Shown here piece by piece: positions 1-7,220 of a DNA stretch of 7,220 bases. The translations under genes and the position numbers were made by a program. Origin of the DNA: a virus. Lineage: Duplodnaviria > Heunggongvirae > Uroviricota > Caudoviricetes. The notes under the pieces are model-generated. The model was not told where the DNA came from. It saw nothing but the letters and a program-made list of their open reading frames with translations, and did not search any database. Location of the stretch: IMG/VR virus record IMGVR_UViG_2585427790_000002; one strand, 5' to 3'. Every line of letters starts with the position of its first letter. Position 1 is the stretch's first letter.

Positions 1-50
1 GCGAGGTCGCCGCCCCGTAACCTGTCGGATCGCCGGAAAGGACCCGCAAA
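1..50 (-). other. cos: Lambda-type cos packaging site (cosN cohesive-end sequence at 4-15, cosQ-like element around 38-46), in reverse orientation; the cosB side lies beyond the left window edge
   Basis: Positions 1-15 gcgaggtcgccgccc are the reverse complement of the lambda left end GGGCGGCGACCTCGC (12-nt cohesive end GGGCGGCGACCT). Positions 16-50 are the reverse complement of the lambda right terminus ...GCGGGTCCTTTCCGGCGATCCGACAGGTTACG. This match is from recalled lambda sequence, not an alignment. Confidence 0.85.
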
Positions 51-214
51 ATGATAATAATTATCATCTACATGTCACAACGTGCATCTACGCCATCAAA
101 CCACGTCAAATAATCAATTATGACGCAGGTATCGTATTAATTGATCTGCATCAACTTAACGTAAAAACAACTTCAGACAATACAAATCAGCGACACTGAA
201 TACGGGGCAACCTC

Positions 215-409
215 ATGTCAACGAAGAACAGAACCCGCAGAACAACAACCCGCAACATCCGCTTTCCTAACCAAATGATTGAACAAATTAACATCGCTCT
301 TGAGCAAAAAGGGTCCGGGAATTTCTCAGCCTGGGTCATTGAAGCCTGCCGTCGGAGACTAACGTCAGAAAAGAGAGCATATACATCAATTAAAAGTGAT
401 GAAGAATGA
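215..409 (+). CDS. ylcI: Small basic protein of unknown function (YlcI/DUF3950-like, 64 aa); sequence pattern suggests a ribbon-helix-helix DNA-binding fold
   Basis: ATG at 215 with GGGG 9 nt upstream; 64-aa ORF. Size and position (between cos and ybcW) match the DLP12 gene order. Arg-rich N-terminus followed by RNIRFP / NQMIEQINIALEQ / GSGNFS / AWVIEACRRRL, which fits a strand-helix-turn-helix RHH pattern. Confidence 0.75.
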   Translation: MSTKNRTRRTTTRNIRFPNQMIEQINIALEQKGSGNFSAWVIEACRRRLTSEKRAYTSIKSDEE

Positions 410-573
410 ACATCCCGCGTTCTTCCCTCCGAACAGGACGATATTGTAAATTCACTTAATTACGAGGGCATTGCAGTAATTGAGTTGCAGTTTTACCACT
501 TTCCTGACAGTGACAGACTGCGTGTTGGCTCTGTCACAGGCTAAATAGTTTGAATGATTAGCAGTTATGGTGA

Positions 574-780
574 TCAGTCAACCACCAGGGAATAATCCTT
601 CATATTATTATCGTGCTTCACCAACGCTGCCTCAATTGCTCTGAATGCTTCCAGAGACACCTTATGTTCTATACATGCAATTACAACATCAGGGTAACTC
701 ATAGAAATGGTGCTATTAAGCATATTTTTTACACGAATCAGATCCACGGAGGGATCATCAGCAGATTGTTCTTTATTCAT
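574..780 (-). CDS. ybcW: Small acidic hypothetical protein (YbcW-like, 68 aa)
   Basis: 68-aa ORF on the minus strand with ATG at 780 and GGAG 8 nt upstream. Convergent with ylcI and divergent from ybcV, as in DLP12. Function unknown. Confidence 0.7.
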
Positions 781-1065
781 TTTGTCGCTCCATGCGCTTG
801 CTCTTCATCTAGCGGTTAAAATATTACTTCAAATCTTTCTGTATGAAGATTTGAGCACGTTGGCCTTACATACATCTGTCGGTTGTATTTCCCTCCAGAA
901 TGCCAGCAGGACCGCACTTTGTTACGCAACCAATACTATTAAGTGAAAACATTCCTAATATTTGACATAAATCATCAACAAAACACAAAGAGGTCAGACC
1001 AGATTGAAACGATAAAAACGATAATGCAAACTACGCGCCCTCGTATCACATGGAAGGTTTTACCA

Positions 1066-1476
1066 ATGGCTCAGGTTGCCATTTTTAAAGAAATATTCGA
1101 TCAAGTGCGAAAAGATTTAAACTGTGAATTGTTTTATTCTGAACTAAAACGTCACAACGTCTCACATTATATTTACTATCTAGCCACAGATAATATTCAC
1201 ATCGTGTTAGAAAACGATAACACCGTGTTAATAAAAGGACTTAAAAAGGTTGTAAATGTTAAATTCTCAAGAAACACGCATCTTATAGAAACGTCCTATG
1301 ATAGGTTGAAATCAAGAGAAATCACATTTCAGCAATACAGGGAAAATCTTGCTAAAGCAGGAGTTTTCCGATGGGTTACAAATATCCATGAACATAAAAG
1401 ATATTACTATACCTTTGATAATTCATTACTATTTACTGAGAGCATTCAGAACACTACACAAATCTTTCCACGCTAA
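1066..1476 (+). CDS. ybcV: DUF1398-family prophage protein (YbcV-like, 136 aa from ATG 1066); alternative upstream in-frame starts at 1024 and 943
   Basis: The ORF track gives 943..1476 (177 aa). The internal ATG at 1066 is preceded by GGAAGG with 8-nt spacing and gives a 136-aa product, the length I recall for YbcV. The upstream ATGs lack a comparable RBS. Confidence 0.7.
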
Positions 1477-1766
1477 ATCATAACGTCCGGTTTCTTCCGT
1501 GTCAGCACCGGGGCGTTGGCATAATGCAATACGTGTACGCGCTAAACCCTGTGTGCATCGTTTTTAATTATTCCCGGACACTCCCGCAGAGAAGTTCCCC
1601 GTCAGGGCTGTGGACATAGTTAATCCGGGAATACAATGACGATTCATCGCACCTGACATACATTAATAAATATTAACAATATGAAATTTCAACTCATTGT
1701 TTAGGGTTTGTTTAATTTTCTACACATACGATTCTGCGAACTTCAAAAAGCATCGGGAATAACACC

Positions 1767-2060
1767 ATGAAAAAAATGCTACTCGCTACTGCGCTGGCCC
1801 TGCTTATTACAGGATGTGCTCAACAGACGTTTACTGTTCAAAACAAACCGGCAGCAGTAGCACCAAAGGAAACCATCACCCATCATTTCTTCGTTTCTGG
1901 AATTGGGCAGAAGAAAACTGTCGATGCAGCCAAAATTTGTGGCGGCGCAGAAAATGTTGTTAAAACAGAAACCCAGCAAACATTCGTAAATGGATTGCTC
2001 GGTTTTATTACTTTAGGCATTTATACTCCGCTGGAAGCGCGTGTGTATTGCTCACAATAA
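1767..2060 (+). CDS. bor: Bor outer-membrane lipoprotein (serum-resistance lipoprotein of lambdoid phages), 97 aa precursor
   Basis: N-terminal signal peptide with lipobox LITGC (MKKMLLATALALLITGC). Sequence is recognisably lambda Bor/BorD. Opposite strand to the lysis genes, as in lambda. Confidence 0.92.
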   Translation: MKKMLLATALALLITGCAQQTFTVQNKPAAVAPKETITHHFFVSGIGQKKTVDAAKICGGAENVVKTETQQTFVNGLLGFITLGIYTPLEARVYCSQ

Positions 2061-2066
2061 TTGCAT

Positions 2067-2092
2067 GAGTTGCCCATCGATATGGGCAACTC
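2067..2092. terminator. Perfect 26-bp palindrome (GAGTTGCCCAT CGAT ATGGGCAACTC) between convergent bor and Rz; candidate bidirectional terminator or protein-binding site
   Basis: Seen directly. It sits 7 nt after the bor stop and includes the Rz stop codon. Flanks are only modestly U-rich on either strand. Confidence 0.45.
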
Positions 2093-2553
2093 TATCTGCA
2101 CTGCTCATTAATATACTTCTGGGTTCCTTCCAGTTGTTTTTGCATAGTGATCAGCCTCTCTCTGAGGGTGAAATAATCCCGTTCAGCGGTGTCTGCCAGT
2201 CGGGGGGAGGCTGCATTATCCACGCCGGAGGCGGTGGTGGCTTCACGCACTGACTGACAGACTGCTTTGATGTGCAACCGACGACGACCAGCGGCAACAT
2301 CATCACGCAGAGCATCATTTTCAGCTTTCGCATTAGCTAACTCCTTCGTGTATTTTTCATCCAGTGCAGCAACATCACGCTGGCGCATCTGCATGTCAGT
2401 AATTGCCGCGTTCGCCAGCTTCAGTTCTCTGGCATTTTTGTCGCGCTGGGCTTTGTAGGTAATGGCGTTATCACGGTAATGATTAACAGCCCATGACAGG
2501 CAGACGATGATGCAGATAACCAGAGCGGAGATAATCGCGGTTACTCTGTTCAT
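2092..2553 (-). CDS. rzpD: Rz i-spanin (inner-membrane spanin subunit), 153 aa from ATG 2553
   Basis: N-terminal transmembrane segment ([18 protein letters not shown]) followed by a charged, coiled-coil-like periplasmic domain. ATG at 2553 overlaps the endolysin stop (ATGA). The ORF-track start at 2565 is a GTG four codons upstream. Confidence 0.9.
2151..2333 (-). CDS. rzoD: Rz1 o-spanin (outer-membrane lipoprotein spanin subunit), embedded in the +1 frame of Rz
   Basis: 60-aa ORF wholly inside Rz in a different frame. Signal peptide with lipobox VVVGC, then a proline-rich mature segment (PPPPPAW...PPPDW), the typical Rz1 signature. Confidence 0.8.
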
Positions 2554-3047
2554 TGCTGACCCCACAAACAGATTTCACGCTCAATCTCACGACGAGTCAT
2601 GAGACCTTTCCATTGCTTACCGCCAGAATATGTCCAGCGACGTAGCTGATCACATGCGCCTTTGATATCGCCCTGGTTTATTTTGCGAAGAAGCGTCGAT
2701 GTTCTGAAATTGCCAGCGCCCACGTTGTAAACGAACGAGTAAAGAGCGCCGCGCGTTGTTTCCGGTATATCAACTTTTATGTACGGGTTAATTTGTCTGG
2801 CGACCGTGGCAAGGTCTTTATTCAGGAGGGCTTTGCATTCTGCTTTGGTATACGTTTTACCGAGCATGATGTCTTTTCCTGTATGCCCGTGACATACAGT
2901 CCATACACCAACAATATCTTTGTATGGTATGTAGCTGACACCTTCCAGACCATCGTTACCACTTGGGCCAGTGATTAACACTGATGCTATAGCAATTGCT
3001 CCGCCACCAATAGCAGCAGCAACGGCTTTTCGTAATGATGGAGGCAT
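2550..3047 (-). CDS. rrrD: SAR endolysin (phage-21 R-type lysozyme with N-terminal signal-anchor-release domain), 165 aa
   Basis: Gly/Ala-rich weakly hydrophobic N-terminal segment ([20 protein letters not shown]) characteristic of a SAR domain, followed by a lysozyme catalytic region ([17 protein letters not shown]). Near-identical to my recollection of phage 21 R / DLP12 RrrD. Start overlaps the holin stop (TAATG). Confidence 0.93.
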
Positions 3048-3262
3048 TATTCACCTCTCGCAGCCTTGCGCTTATCTTCTTTAATCTTGAAATAAAGGTT
3101 TGTCAGGTACGTCAGCAGGCCAAATACCAGGCTACCCAGCACACCTATTGCTGCCCACTGTGAGGGCGTGACTTTATCGAGCAGCTGTAAAAACCAGTAA
3201 CCGGCACTACCTGCTGAGGTGCCATAGGCGACACCCGTTGTTAACTTATCCATGGATTTCAT
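3047..3262 (-). CDS. essD: Class II pinholin (phage-21 S-type) with dual-start motif MKSM (antiholin from Met1, holin from Met4), 71 aa
   Basis: Sequence [24 protein letters not shown]...[22 protein letters not shown] has two transmembrane segments and a charged C-terminus. RBS GAGGTGGGG precedes ATG 3262. The ORF-track start at 3307 adds 15 residues without an RBS and is rejected. Confidence 0.9.
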
Positions 3263-3649
3263 AACCCCACCTCGCAGACAAAGCGGGTGTAAATTGAGGG
3301 AATACAACGTATCGCAAAAAAGCAGAAACGTAACAGACTCGGAGTCAGTGAATAACTCAGGTATTGAGTTATCAGCTAATATCGAGACTCAGAAAATGGA
3401 AAAACCAGCTCGACGGCGGGTTTAAGCTGTGTGACGAAGTAACCACTCTTAACAGCATAACCAATTTTTTACGTACGTAAACCACTGAATGATATTTATG
3501 AGAATGCTACCGAGTGTTCAAAACACCACCACAAATACATAAGAAAACCTCAACAAATAACCAATAAATAATTTCAGGCGTTATTTTTAGTTGATTTAAA
3601 TTAAACTGCCGAATTATAGAGCCTCCATAAATAACAACTATTAATATAA

Positions 3650-3849
3650 ATTAGCTAATAGGTTTACTTTTGTTCAAATAAGAGCCACAAATAGGTTTCG
3701 ATAGAAAAAGTTCAGATAAAAATAGAGATCTACTTCACAAATTAAATGAGAAACTAAAACTTACATCTTGAAATAATCACATTGATTAGATGAATATTTA
3801 TCGCGCAGTGACATCATTTTTTAATAATAGTTCAAAAAAAGGGCTCACG
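3650..3849 (+). promoter_or_regulatory. nmpC upstream regulatory region with two OmpR-box-like sequences (about 3661-3680 and 3761-3780); promoter not precisely mapped
   Basis: GGTTTACTTTTGTTCAAATA (3661-3680) and TTACATCTTGAAATAATCAC (3761-3780) resemble the TTTAC(A/T)TTTTG-type OmpR half-sites of ompF/ompC as I recall them. Strongly AT-rich; candidate -35 TTGATT/TTGAAA hexamers but no clean -10. Confidence 0.3.
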
Positions 3850-4932
3850 ATGAAAAAATTAACAGTGGCAATTTCTGCTGTAGCTGCATCAGTACTGATG
3901 GCGATGTCTGCTCAGGCAGCTGAAATTTATAATAAAGACAGTAACAAGCTGGATCTATATGGGAAAGTTAATGCCAAGCACTACTTCTCCTCTAATGATG
4001 CAGATGATGGTGATACTACTTATGCCCGTCTTGGCTTCAAAGGTGAAACCCAAATCAACGATCAACTGACTGGTTTCGGTCAGTGGGAATATGAATTCAA
4101 AGGCAACCGCGCTGAATCTCAAGGCTCCTCCAAAGACAAAACCCGTCTTGCATTTGCAGGCCTGAAATTCGGGGACTACGGCTCAATCGATTACGGCCGT
4201 AACTACGGTGTAGCATATGACATCGGTGCGTGGACTGACGTTCTGCCAGAATTCGGTGGCGATACCTGGACCCAAACAGATGTGTTCATGACTGGTCGCA
4301 CCACTGGTGTTGCAACTTATCGTAACAACGACTTCTTTGGTCTGGTTGATGGTCTGAACTTTGCTGCTCAGTATCAGGGTAAAAATGACCGCACTGACGT
4401 AACTGAAGCTAATGGTGATGGTTTCGGTTTCTCCACTACTTATGAGTATGAAGGATTCGGTGTAGGTGCAACCTATGCTAAATCTGACCGCACTAATAAT
4501 CAGGTTATCTACGGTAACAACAGCCTGAATGCATCTGGTCAAAATGCTGAAGTATGGGCAGCTGGTCTGAAATATGATGCGAACAACATCTATCTGGCTA
4601 CCACCTATTCTGAAACCCAGAACATGACTGTTTTTGGTAATAACCATATTGCCAACAAAGCACAAAACTTCGAAGTAGTTGCACAATATCAGTTCGACTT
4701 CGGTCTGCGTCCGTCCGTTGCTTACCTGCAATCTAAAGGAAAAGACTTGGGTGCGTGGGGTGATCAGGACCTGGTTGAATATATTGATGTAGGTGCAACC
4801 TATTACTTCAACAAAAATATGTCCACTTTTGTTGATTACAAAATCAACCTGATTGATAAGAGCGATTTCACGAAAGCATCTGGCGTTGCTACCGATGATA
4901 TCGTTGCTGTAGGTATGGTTTACCAGTTCTAA
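3850..4932 (+). CDS. nmpC: General bacterial porin of the OmpC/OmpF/PhoE family (prophage-encoded NmpC/Lc-type), 360-aa precursor, apparently intact
   Basis: Signal peptide [23 protein letters not shown] then AEIYNKD..., porin motifs and C-terminal ...VGMVYQF with terminal Phe. ATG at 3850; the ORF-track start at 3790 is a 20-codon extension. No internal stop or IS. Confidence 0.93.
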
Positions 4933-4940
4933 TTTGATTA

Positions 4941-4979
4941 CTAAAAGATATGTTGCGGGAGGCTTTGCCTCCCCAACAT
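4941..4979 (-). terminator. Candidate intrinsic terminator on the minus strand (tR'-like, downstream of the late promoter); the same hairpin sits directly 3' of the nmpC stop on the plus strand
   Basis: GC-rich stem GGGAGGC/GCCTCCC extended by ATGTTG/CAACAT, loop TTT. On the minus strand it is followed by AUAUCUUUU. A second hairpin AAGTGGCT-CCCTCA-AGCCACTT lies at 4982-5003. Confidence 0.4.
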
Positions 4980-5039
4980 ATAAGTGGCTCCCTCAAGCCA
5001 CTTCCTTTAGGAGCACAACCTTGCTTCTAACTATATAAA

Positions 5040-5120
5040 CCTTCTGTTATATATTACCCTTTATTTTTGGGGGCGTTGCAACGCCCCATTTTTAATAATT
5101 TTTAGTAAACAATTGGCATA
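5040..5120 (-). promoter_or_regulatory. Candidate Q-dependent late promoter (pR') and qut region immediately downstream of Q; exact -35/-10 not resolved
   Basis: Placed by analogy with lambdoid phages, where pR'/qut lies just 3' of Q. Minus-strand candidates include TTGCAA (5081-5076) with GTAATA/TAATAT 17-19 nt downstream. Purely positional and motif-based. Confidence 0.3.
5069..5105 (+). terminator. Rho-independent terminator for the plus strand (likely nmpC terminator): GC hairpin plus T-tract
   Basis: GGGGCGTTGCAACGCCCC (perfect inverted repeat) followed by ATTTTTAATAATTTTT on the plus strand. On the minus strand the hairpin is followed by A-rich sequence, so it is not a good minus-strand terminator. 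Confidence 0.55.
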
Positions 5121-5504
5121 TTAATTAGAGTTATTAACAACGATATCCATCTCTAACCGGATATCTAATGCCATTAACATCCCTTCAATTATGCCCTCAG
5201 CCTTCTGTAACCTTTTCCCGATATAACCATCAGAGCAGCAATGCTTACCTGCCAGTGACATGAATGTCATACCGACTACATAATAATCTACTAATAAATC
5301 GTGCAAATCGCTGTTGTTCTTTTTCAGACGGGCCATGCACCCGCAAATAATCATCGCGTCATCGTCACAACATTGCGGGCGAGATTTTACTTTTGAAGTA
5401 ATTAATCCCTTAAAACCGGCGGCAATGGACGACCAGGTCACATCTTCATGATTATTAGCCGCCCACGCTCCCCAACGCTCAAGAACCATCTGAATATCAC
5501 GCAT
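5121..5504 (-). CDS. quuD: Late-gene antiterminator Q (phage 82/DLP12 QuuD type), 127 aa
   Basis: [24 protein letters not shown]... with Cys-rich segments ([15 protein letters not shown]). ATG at 5504 preceded by GGAG. The ORF-track start at 5519 is a TTG five codons upstream. Confidence 0.92.
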
Positions 5505-5589
5505 CAACTTACTCCACAAAAATCAGACCAGAACGCCAATTACAAGCAAAAATCAACAAAACAGTATTAGTTGATTGTTATCTCTGACT

Positions 5590-5730
5590 TCATACTCCTG
5601 CTCCTGTCAGGGTTTTGGCGTAATTCTTCAGTATTCGGTAATCGGTCAAAACAGAACCGGGGAAACGATATAAGCGCAGATGCCCCCAGCGGTGGCGAAG
5701 AAGTTCTGCCATATAAAACTCAAACATCAT
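5590..5730 (-). CDS. ylcG: Small hypothetical protein (YlcG-like, 46 aa); absent from the ORF track because it is under 60 aa
   Basis: Hand translation of the minus strand gives [46 protein letters not shown]. The ATG at 5730 overlaps the rusA stop (ATGA). Size and position between rusA and Q match DLP12 ylcG. Confidence 0.6.
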
Positions 5731-6089
5731 TCATTCCCCATTTCGGTGATGGTCAGTTCCAGCCTCCCACCTTTGGTAACAGGCATCTTCACAACGCGGT
5801 AATCAACGACCTGAGCATCATCCAGCCAGAAACCTGCTTTGGTGAGTGCGTCAAAAGCGGCTTTTTGCAGATTATCCAGGTCACGGCGACGGCGATCCGG
5901 CATGTGGCACTCAATACGGATTTTCACTGGCATAGCCAGGCCGATATCCAGCATTGCGTTTTTAATGATTCGGGTGACGTTATCGCGGTATGCCTGCCCT
6001 TCTGCGCTGATGTGCGTGCGCCCGCGATTATGGCGGTAATAGCGATTATTGCTCGGAGGCCAGGGTAATGTGATGCTGTAGGTATTCAC
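5727..6089 (-). CDS. rusA: RusA Holliday-junction resolvase (endodeoxyribonuclease RUS), 120 aa
   Basis: [38 protein letters not shown]... is recognisably RusA. Start codon is GTG at 6089, overlapping the ybcO stop (GTGA). Confidence 0.93.
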
Positions 6090-6376
6090 GCCTTAATAAC
6101 CCCCTCTTTCAGCCAGATAACCTGTGTTCTCGCCATACCTTCCAGCGCGCATTCTTTTGCATATGCAGCATCGACAAAATGTGTGCGGCGGTCGATTTCG
6201 TCGTGGCAGGCAGAACATGCAATGGTGGCAATCAGGTCTGGCGGTTTGATACCGGTACCGCACAATCCAGCCAGCCGGATATGTGCCAGTACAGACGTTT
6301 CAGAATTGCCATTACATACGCCAGGGATTCTTACCTGGCATTCCCGACCACGCGCTGCTTTTCTCAAATCAGCCAT
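6086..6376 (-). CDS. ybcO: DUF1364-family Cys-rich putative nuclease/zinc-binding protein (YbcO-like), 96 aa from ATG 6376
   Basis: ATG at 6376 preceded by AGGAGGAATC. Several Cys/His residues ([11 protein letters not shown]). The ORF-track start at 6415 is 13 codons upstream with no RBS. Confidence 0.85.
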
Positions 6377-6539
6377 GATTCCTCCTTGCTGCCAGTCGCA
6401 ACCATTTTTTATCAACCAGGCTGGCGGTATATCCGAGCAGAGTTGGTATTTCGGATGGCTTCAGCTCAGGTTTACGCTTACGACGATTTGGTACTTTGTA
6501 GATGTGTCCGTTCATGACACGAATAAGCGGTGTAGCCAT
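6369..6539 (-). CDS. ninE: NinE-family small protein, 56 aa
   Basis: [59 protein letters not shown] at 6539 preceded by AGGAGG and overlapping the upstream gene's stop (TAATG). Its 3' end overlaps the ybcO start by 8 nt. Confidence 0.85.
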   Translation of the reverse strand: MATPLIRVMNGHIYKVPNRRKRKPELKPSEIPTLLGYTASLVDKKWLRLAARRNHG

Positions 6540-6939
6540 TACGCCTCCTGCTTGTCGCGCAGCAGCTGGAACTCGCAGCGCTGCGGAATAGTCAGGTGGC
6601 AACCAATATTCATCGCCCAGGCTTCAACCTTACACAGGAAGACATACATCTCTCCGGTATCAAGATCGGAGGTATGGCGTAACGACTGGATAGTGGTGAT
6701 ATCACCGGTTACGACATCAACCAGTTCTTTGGTTTCATAACCGAGATAAGTGTGTTTCAGAGCATCCTTCACCCACTCTGGCGTAGCGAAAGTCTTACCC
6801 CGGCTGATGAGGTATTCGCTGATTTCGGTGTACCACATGTGGCTTAAGCTATTTTGAGACAGGCTGCGCTTATCGCGCCATGGCTTCAGTACCATGCGGA
6901 AGCACTTGCCGTCCTCCAGATAAGGCTGGAGCTGCTGAC
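6539..6939 (-). pseudogene. ybcN: NinB/Orf-family recombination protein gene (YbcN-like), 5'-truncated by the IS insertion at about 6940
   Basis: Contains RSLSQNSLSHMW, resembling the lambda NinB motif RSLDQNRKLW. The frame stays open upstream of the track's Met (6895) right up to the IS end, with no start codon, and the product is about 20-30 aa shorter at the N-terminus than lambda NinB. Confidence 0.7.
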
Positions 6940-7220
6940 TGAACCGCCCCGGGTTTCCTGGAGAGTGTTTTATCTGTGAACTCAGGCTGCCAGATCATCG
7001 TTTCCGATGGAAGCATAATAAGCTTTTTCTGCTTCTGCCGGAGGAGTATGGCCCAGCCTTTCCAGCAATCGTCGATTGTTATACCAGTCCACCCACGTGA
7101 GTGTGGCCAGTTCCACTTCTGCACGGTTTTTCCAGCTCTTACGGTGTATTACCTCCGCTTTGTAAAGACCATTGATGCTCTCCGCCATCGCGTTGTCATA
7201 CGAGTCGCCTGTACTTCCTG
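6940..7220 (-). mobile_element. Right end of an IS3-family insertion sequence (IS629/IS3411-like terminal inverted repeat); element continues beyond the window
   Basis: Terminal sequence TGAACCGCCCCGGGTTTCCTGGAGAGTG starting at 6940 (5'-TG end typical of IS3 family; matches my recollection of the IS629 inverted repeat). It abuts the truncated ninB-like gene and lies 42 bp beyond the transposase stop. Confidence 0.75.
6982..7220 (-). CDS. IS3-family transposase OrfB (DDE integrase core), C-terminal fragment; N-terminus outside the window
   Basis: The frame is open from the window edge: ...GSTGDSYDNAMAESINGLYKAEVIHRKSWKNRAEVELATLTWVDWYNNRRLLERLGHTPPAEAEKAYY..., a typical rve-domain C-terminus (YDNA...ES.NG motif region). 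Confidence 0.85.
   Translation of the reverse strand, partial: GSTGDSYDNAMAESINGLYKAEVIHRKSWKNRAEVELATLTWVDWYNNRRLLERLGHTPPAEAEKAYYASIGNDDLAA

Follow-up and report, generated by a model that had tools for sequence, protein, structure and literature searches.

The window, by which we mean the whole 7,220-nt stretch of DNA analysed here, carries on its minus strand (the operon strand) a run of prophage genes, ninE, ybcO, rusA, ylcG and quuD, preceded by a truncated ybcN and, at the end of the stretch, by part of an insertion sequence (Table 1). The region is orthologous to the DLP12 prophage of Escherichia coli K-12, with 94.9-96.6% nucleotide identity and an EssD identical at 71 of 71 residues, so knowledge of the K-12 locus is a fair guide to it. 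The gene order ybcN-ninE-ybcO-rusA is conserved, the ninE ATG overlaps the ybcN stop (TAATG), and intact genes for holin, lysozyme and Rz are present. The closest complete E. coli genomes reach only 97.9% identity across positions 1-6939, and an Rfam scan of the whole window gave no match.

Two further observations concern the distal part of the window. Between quuD and the lysis genes the window has an uninterrupted nmpC/ompC-like porin gene, whose K-12 counterpart is split by IS5; the gene lies antisense to the path of the Q-dependent late transcript. Position 2627 holds a private SNP (A, against C in 6/6 related contigs), which gives the lysozyme RrrD a Ser where the relatives and K-12 have Ala.

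Table 1. Features of the window and of related contigs. Positions are those of the window unless a contig is named.
Feature	Position	Strand	Basis or remark
Lysis cassette essD/rrrD/rzpD	3262-2092	-	then bor
Porin gene	3850-4932	+	beyond quuD
quuD, 127 aa, Q-family antiterminator	5121..5504	-	intact; Pfam Phage_antitermQ E=3.5e-53; 127/127 identical to K-12
ylcG, 46 aa	5590..5730	-	intact; 44/46 identical to K-12
rusA, 120 aa, Holliday-junction resolvase	5727..6089	-	intact; Pfam RusA E=1.6e-22; 118/120 identical to K-12
ybcO, 96 aa	6086..6376	-	intact; Pfam YbcO E=6e-41; 92/96 identical to K-12
ninE, 56 aa	6369..6539	-	intact; 54/56 residues identical to K-12
Truncated ybcN (putative Orf/NinB family member), nt 56-456 of 456	6539..6939	-	aligned with the uninterrupted gene of E. 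coli L73 and K-12
118-aa ORF from internal ATG at 6895 (Met34 of YbcN)	6539..6895	-	first in-frame start left; same product called in relatives
3-bp target-site duplication, right copy	6937..6939	-	GTC on operon strand, GAC on + strand
IS629 right-hand 281 nt (IS3 family)	6940..7220	-	nt 1026-1306 of the 1,306-bp pCP301 copy; continues past window end
IRR of IS629, TGAACCGCCCCGGGTTTCCTGGAGAG read inward on + strand	6940..6965	-	matches left repeat TGAACCGCCCCGGGAATCCTGGAGAC at 23 of the first 25 positions
Transposase orfB 3' end, last 78 codons and stop TGA at 6984-6982	6982..7220	-	ORF list, translation, pCP301 'IS629 ORF2' annotation
IS629-like insertions at ybcN in other contigs	L001 4486-5708; L009 4148-5457; L016 2140-3450; L015 2197-3495; L017 2296-3610; L010 4736-6050
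4-bp deletion	L003 5769-5799; L004 9942-9972; L005 and L006 4625-4655		matches window ~6935-6940 together with the 5' flank that the window lacks

An IS629 copy in the 5' part of ybcN

The last 281 nt of the window are the right end of IS629, identical at 281/281 positions to many copies on Shigella and E. coli plasmids, among them one annotated 'IS629 ORF2' on Shigella flexneri pCP301. Translation of the minus strand between 6982 and 7218 matches Pfam rve_3 (E=2.3e-12) and rve_2, the C-terminal domains of the integrase core, and the position of the orfB stop on that strand makes this the orfB-distal (right) end, with the transposase on the operon strand. Of orfB, the window contains no more than the C-terminal 78 codons. 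A second contig, L012 (IMG/VR UViG 2585427782_000006), has the beginning of orfA, with its ATG 54 nt inside the element, and a programmed frameshift is annotated in related copies. The first 279 nt of IS629 in L012 agree with the pCP301 copy except for one mismatch, as judged by eye. The left repeat TGAACCGCCCCGGGAATCCTGGAGAC is present in both L012 and pCP301, and it begins with TGAACCGCCCCGGG, as does the right repeat in the window, so that the element has the imperfect terminal inverted repeats, with 5'-TG...CA-3' ends, of an IS3-family insertion sequence. The names IS1203 and IS3411 belong to the same element group. An earlier sequence-only reading of the window had proposed that an IS3-family element ends at about 6940, that it cuts the 5' part of a NinB-family gene and that it is co-oriented with ninE-ybcO-rusA-ylcG-Q. 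All three proposals hold: the element is IS629 with its terminus at 6940, the junction falls at nt 56 of ybcN, and orfB is on the operon strand.

The same reading had suggested alignment to reference ends, to fix the junction, and a search for a target duplication. On the + strand the sequence runs GCTGCTGAC and then TGAACCGCCCCGGGTTTCC; position 6940 is the first letter of TGAACC, and TGAACCGCCCCGGGTTTCCTGGAGAG leads into the element. Relatives free of the element align with the window through 6938/6939 and then part from it, which places the junction between 6939 and 6940. Read on the operon strand, the right junction joins GGCGGTTCA to GTCAGCAGC (in longer form, GGGGCGGTTCA to GTCAGCAGCTCC). 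A pattern built for the predicted left junction had a single match in viral contigs, in L012, and none in metagenome contigs; there CACCGCTATCGGTC is joined to TGAACCGCC (in longer form, GGTAACTTCACCGCTATCGGTC to TGAACCGCCCCGGGAATCCTGGAGACTAAACTTCC). The intact target is TATCGGTCAGCAGC, in which GTC occurs once, and GTC stands at both ends of IS629 after insertion. Taken together, the two junctions, which come from different records (the window and L012) with the middle of the element seen in no single contig, are those of a simple insertion that duplicated 3 bp, GTC. Across the 2.2 kb upstream of ybcN, L012 and the IS-free relatives share 99.96% identity, so L012 is of the same haplotype.

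Could the junction be a chimeric join, made during assembly, between a prophage contig and a repeated IS? IS629 is highly repeated, IS ends are places where short-read assemblies are often interrupted or joined wrongly, and one contig with this junction, L007, continues oddly after 57 nt of the element. However, the window, L007 and L008 share an identical right junction, and since the last two are independent ENA contigs it is not the artefact of one assembly. The join also falls precisely at the IS terminus TGAACC, and the reciprocal left junction in L012 comes with a perfect 3-bp target duplication. An artefact has next to no probability against these observations. An exact 30-mer of the right junction had no match in genome, viral or metagenome contigs.

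L007 (1-3193) has its own peculiarity, in that only the last 57 nt of IS629 adjoin ybcN, and upstream of them lies unrelated DNA with another IS3-family transposase and an IS110-family transposase. One IS rearranged inside another, or a chimera made in metagenome assembly, would explain this contig, which was rejected as a view of the full-length element.

The event that would account for both junctions is the transposition of a complete IS629, an IS3-family element of the copy-out-paste-in type, into codon 19/20 of ybcN with duplication of GTC. The gene that was hit heads the ybcN-ninE-ybcO-rusA-ylcG-quuD block in a cryptic prophage orthologous to DLP12.

The ybcN remnant and recurrent insertion around it

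In E. coli L73 the uninterrupted ybcN encodes 151 aa, and the GTCAGCAGC that directly follows the element begins at its nt 56, in codon 19, so that the remnant on the operon side has neither the GTG start nor any of the first 55 nt and 18 codons. The 118-aa frame that is left has its nearest GGAGG 17 nt upstream of the ATG at 6895, too far for an efficient Shine-Dalgarno interaction, and it is therefore probably translated poorly. With the start codon lost and the internal ATG deprived of a usable Shine-Dalgarno, the main effect of the insertion would be inactivation of ybcN. A fusion of transposase to YbcN was considered and rejected, as orfB ends 42 nt before the end of the element. The remnant is identical to K-12 YbcN at 112/118 residues and scores 20.5-20.7 bits against Pfam NinB, under the curated cut-off of 23.8. 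K-12 YbcN has been characterised biochemically as an Orf-family protein (PMC4118853). YbcN probably belongs, as a remote relative, to the family of lambda Orf (NinB), and the label 'NinB-like' is acceptable.

The 5' region of ybcN is a recurrent landing place for IS629-like elements. Independent insertions are found in the 5' part of the gene and in the ~200 bp upstream of it, in several E. coli lineages and in both orientations (examples in Table 1), and some are accompanied by adjacent deletions that reach int/xis. Among 5,426 complete E. coli genomes, an IS629-like element beside ybcN is co-oriented in 7 genomes and opposite in 9, or ~5 against 7 when distinct layouts are counted; the co-oriented query combined part of ybcN with the IS end as in the window, and the opposite query was synthetic, with the IS flipped. 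Co-oriented examples that were inspected are CRE287, O157 FDAARGOS_293, Z1323PEC0008 and strain 1613, and opposite ones are UTME-7 (inside ybcN) and J6. Because the counts are similar, orientation looks unselected, and the co-orientation seen in the window would be the outcome of a coin flip. The same element, IS629/IS1203, is inserted in lambdoid prophages of E. coli, EHEC among them, and of Shigella, often in this very gene. The CRE287 insertion lies 12 bp from that of the window, whereas the exact site itself (GTC, ybcN nt 56-58) is used in none of the 5,426 complete genomes.

Sister alleles without the element and the state of the prophage

Contigs of the same haplotype that are free of the element (L003-L006, 4/4, from independent samples) do not carry the intact target. 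They read CACCGCTATC and then, across a 4-bp deletion, AGCAGC, while the flanks of the IS-bearing allele reconstruct the intact CACCGCTATCGGTCAGCAGC. The deletion exactly overlaps the GTC duplication and frameshifts ybcN, which is why the 118-aa ORF is called in L003-L006. Between 2177 and 6938 the window differs from L004 at a single position, a SNP private to the window. In 1,008 complete E. coli genomes that contain the ybcN region the deletion was never seen, their best matches standing at 97.2% identity, equivalent to a 4-nt gap, and a 31-mer of the scar had no match in genome or viral contigs. The chance that a random 4-bp deletion in ~9 kb of shared sequence would fall on a given 3-bp site is estimated here at <1/1,000. 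Since the IS allele keeps the 4 bp, it is not derivable from the scar allele.

The simplest history would run from an intact allele through IS629 insertion to loss of the element along with 7 flanking bp (G GTC [IS] GTC), the ends being joined at a TC microhomology with a net loss of 4 bp from the target as it stood before insertion. The 4-bp deletion is thus probably the scar of an imprecise, microhomology-mediated excision of IS629, and the insertion would be unstable in the population. Independent slippage at the TC..TC repeat is a possible alternative. Excision of IS629 together with 1-7 flanking bp has been described (PMC9330008), the IS excision enhancer IEE has microhomology-joining activity (PMC9943667), and other IS elements leave scars with 2-4 bp of microhomology (bioRxiv 10.1101/2023.06.07.543989). 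In IEE-promoted, microhomology-mediated excision (Kusumoto et al. 2011; Calvo et al. 2023), IS629 is likewise described as lost with 1-7 flanking bp, with the ends joined at microhomology; the difference is that here the direction of change is deduced from the position of the deletion and the identity of the haplotypes.

The IS-free relatives also bear on what lies upstream. The full-length contigs L003 and L004 have the normal lambdoid layout, with an S24 repressor, ydaS/ydaT, O and P upstream. Compared with L004, L012 has a clean 4,739-bp deletion (L004 2984-7722), with GCGCGTATT joined to TCGACG at L012 ~2515, that removes exactly this block: an N-like gene, the S24 repressor, ydaS/ydaT, O and P, along with a gene for 137 aa. 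In that genome, at least, the prophage is a cryptic remnant with neither repressor nor pR, like DLP12 in K-12, rather than a repressed inducible prophage. The sequence-only reading had spoken of a repressed prophage, which the loss of these 4.7 kb, with repressor, cro-like gene, O and P, makes doubtful.

Just upstream of ybcN in this haplotype is a PRTase-CE and NADAR gene pair (L003 3840-5472; L002 3756-5388; L012 594-2226), in the place occupied by ybcL and ybcM in K-12. The pair may be a defence or anti-defence cargo module.

An insertion at the head of the block could also act as a polar barrier, cutting the operon off from early (pR-type) transcription so that less Q and less late expression would follow induction, which would help to immobilise the prophage. 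The layout of L003 and L004, where repressor, cro-like gene, O and P lie upstream in the same orientation, makes ybcN-to-Q the distal part of an early right operon, and the element adds 1.3 kb with a weak terminator-like hairpin on the transposase strand. However, the repressor-to-P region is already gone from L012, the only contig that shows the left side, so that there may be no promoter left to block, and in textbook lambda biology antiterminated transcription usually passes IS polarity. We regard a polar block as unlikely.

Transcription toward rusA and quuD

The sequence-only reading had gone further and proposed, from what is known of K-12, that the element switches on rusA and Q. The premise is sound: K-12 rusA is silent and is activated by insertion sequences (PMC1636454; PMC3533792; PMC4118853). 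In three accounts the gene is normally quiescent and is turned on by upstream insertions of IS2 (rus-1) or IS10 (rus-2) (PMC1636454; PMC10956419; PMC3533792), and Curtis et al. state that adequate expression of the operon needs insertions that supply an active promoter (PMC4118853). The original isolates (Mahdi et al. 1996, as cited in PMC1636454 and PMC3533792), rus-1 and rus-2, likewise have an IS upstream of rusA in the same prophage block, but those alleles were selected as ruv suppressors and involve IS2 and IS10, whereas here the element is IS629 and sits inside ybcN, where 850 nt separate its end from the start of rusA. By its location and orientation IS629 could act as a rus-type insertion, since it lies upstream of rusA and is turned so that transcription could run into the gene. 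The other half of the mechanism is an outward promoter in the element or created by it, and both IS2 (in orientation II) and IS10 (through pOUT) have outward promoter activity.

Scans of IS629 and the junction did not find such a promoter. A sigma-70-like consensus scan of the operon strand from 7220 to 6100 returned no site, and no sigma-70-like site with at least 9/12 matches occurs on either strand of a whole IS629 copy; consensus scanning of this kind is insensitive to atypical promoters. When the threshold was relaxed over the IS end and junction, only two 8/12 sites appeared, with poor spacers of 15 or 19 nt. Run on IS3 as a rough positive control, the same scan picks out two co-oriented candidates within the right part; a strong outward promoter, P3R, is documented for IS3 (PMC8860574). 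A hybrid promoter, formed from a -35 in the IRR and a -10 in the ybcN flank, was rejected by eye and by the relaxed scan, in which none aligned. No report of an outward promoter in IS629 was found in the literature.

Passage of a transcript from the element is a separate matter. From the element to the quuD stop the operon strand has no predicted intrinsic terminator, and the junction shows no significant RNA structure or terminator (fold z-score -1.2); no C-rich, G-poor, rut-like stretch is evident in the ybcN remnant. Since no intrinsic terminator is predicted on the way to quuD, weak read-through is physically possible.

Could IS629 nonetheless behave as IS2 does in rus-1, with a promoter or read-through running to rusA, ylcG and quuD and making resolvase and Q constitutive? 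Its co-orientation with rusA 850 nt away, the lack of a predicted terminator before quuD and the K-12 precedent would allow it, as would the strong outward promoter of IS3, the type element of the family (PMC8860574), and in Stx phage PA2 the gene after one disrupted by IS629 is reported to be still expressed (bioRxiv 10.1101/2023.09.20.558713). However, besides the empty promoter scans and the literature search, which gave no report of such a promoter, the unbiased orientation of elements beside ybcN argues against it. The ~400 nt of ybcN remnant ahead of ninE, probably untranslated, would favour Rho-dependent polarity, and with the lysis genes intact a strong constitutive Q would probably be counter-selected. 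K-12 itself provides a counter-example. In DLP12 (L013/L014, K-12 566777-568034) an IS3C in renD is co-oriented with the block, 4.4 kb upstream of ybcN, and rusA is quiescent all the same, so a co-oriented IS3-family element upstream is not sufficient for activation. Activation after the manner of rus-1 is, on this balance, quite unlikely. An extended form is a speculation to which we attach little weight: in a wild strain, IS629 inserted at nt 56-58 of ybcN would work as a natural switch of the rus type, read-through supplying constitutive low-level RusA and QuuD and imprecise excision, which would have left the 4-bp scar of the sister genomes, ending the supply, so that the locus would toggle within a gut population.

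The reading that we prefer, at a probability of roughly three in four for the account as a whole, is that of a simple IS629 insertion that inactivated ybcN, that acts as no mobile promoter, whose co-orientation with the operon arose by chance, and that is unstable and prone to imprecise excision. Here IS629 would not serve as a mobile promoter, and its effect on rusA and quuD would be at most weak read-through of a low-level transposase transcript. The proposed activation of rusA and Q is an analogy with K-12 that neither the sequence-level checks, in which IS629 and the junction gave no site scoring 9/12 or better, nor the comparative ones, with orientations divided 7 to 9, tend to favour.

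The insertion site is new; the element and the cryptic prophage are both well known, and the case is ordinary apart from the pairing of insertion and scar alleles. As it stands, it is one more IS629 insertion, which would inactivate ybcN and add to the decay of the prophage. If rusA or Q were shown to be switched on in a natural isolate, the mechanism of the rus-1 and rus-2 laboratory suppressors would be extended to wild strains. The IS-present and 4-bp-deletion alleles, on a near-identical haplotype, would make a tidy natural example of IS629 excision, and the pair may be useful for tracking IS dynamics and IEE activity in gut populations of E. coli and Shigella.
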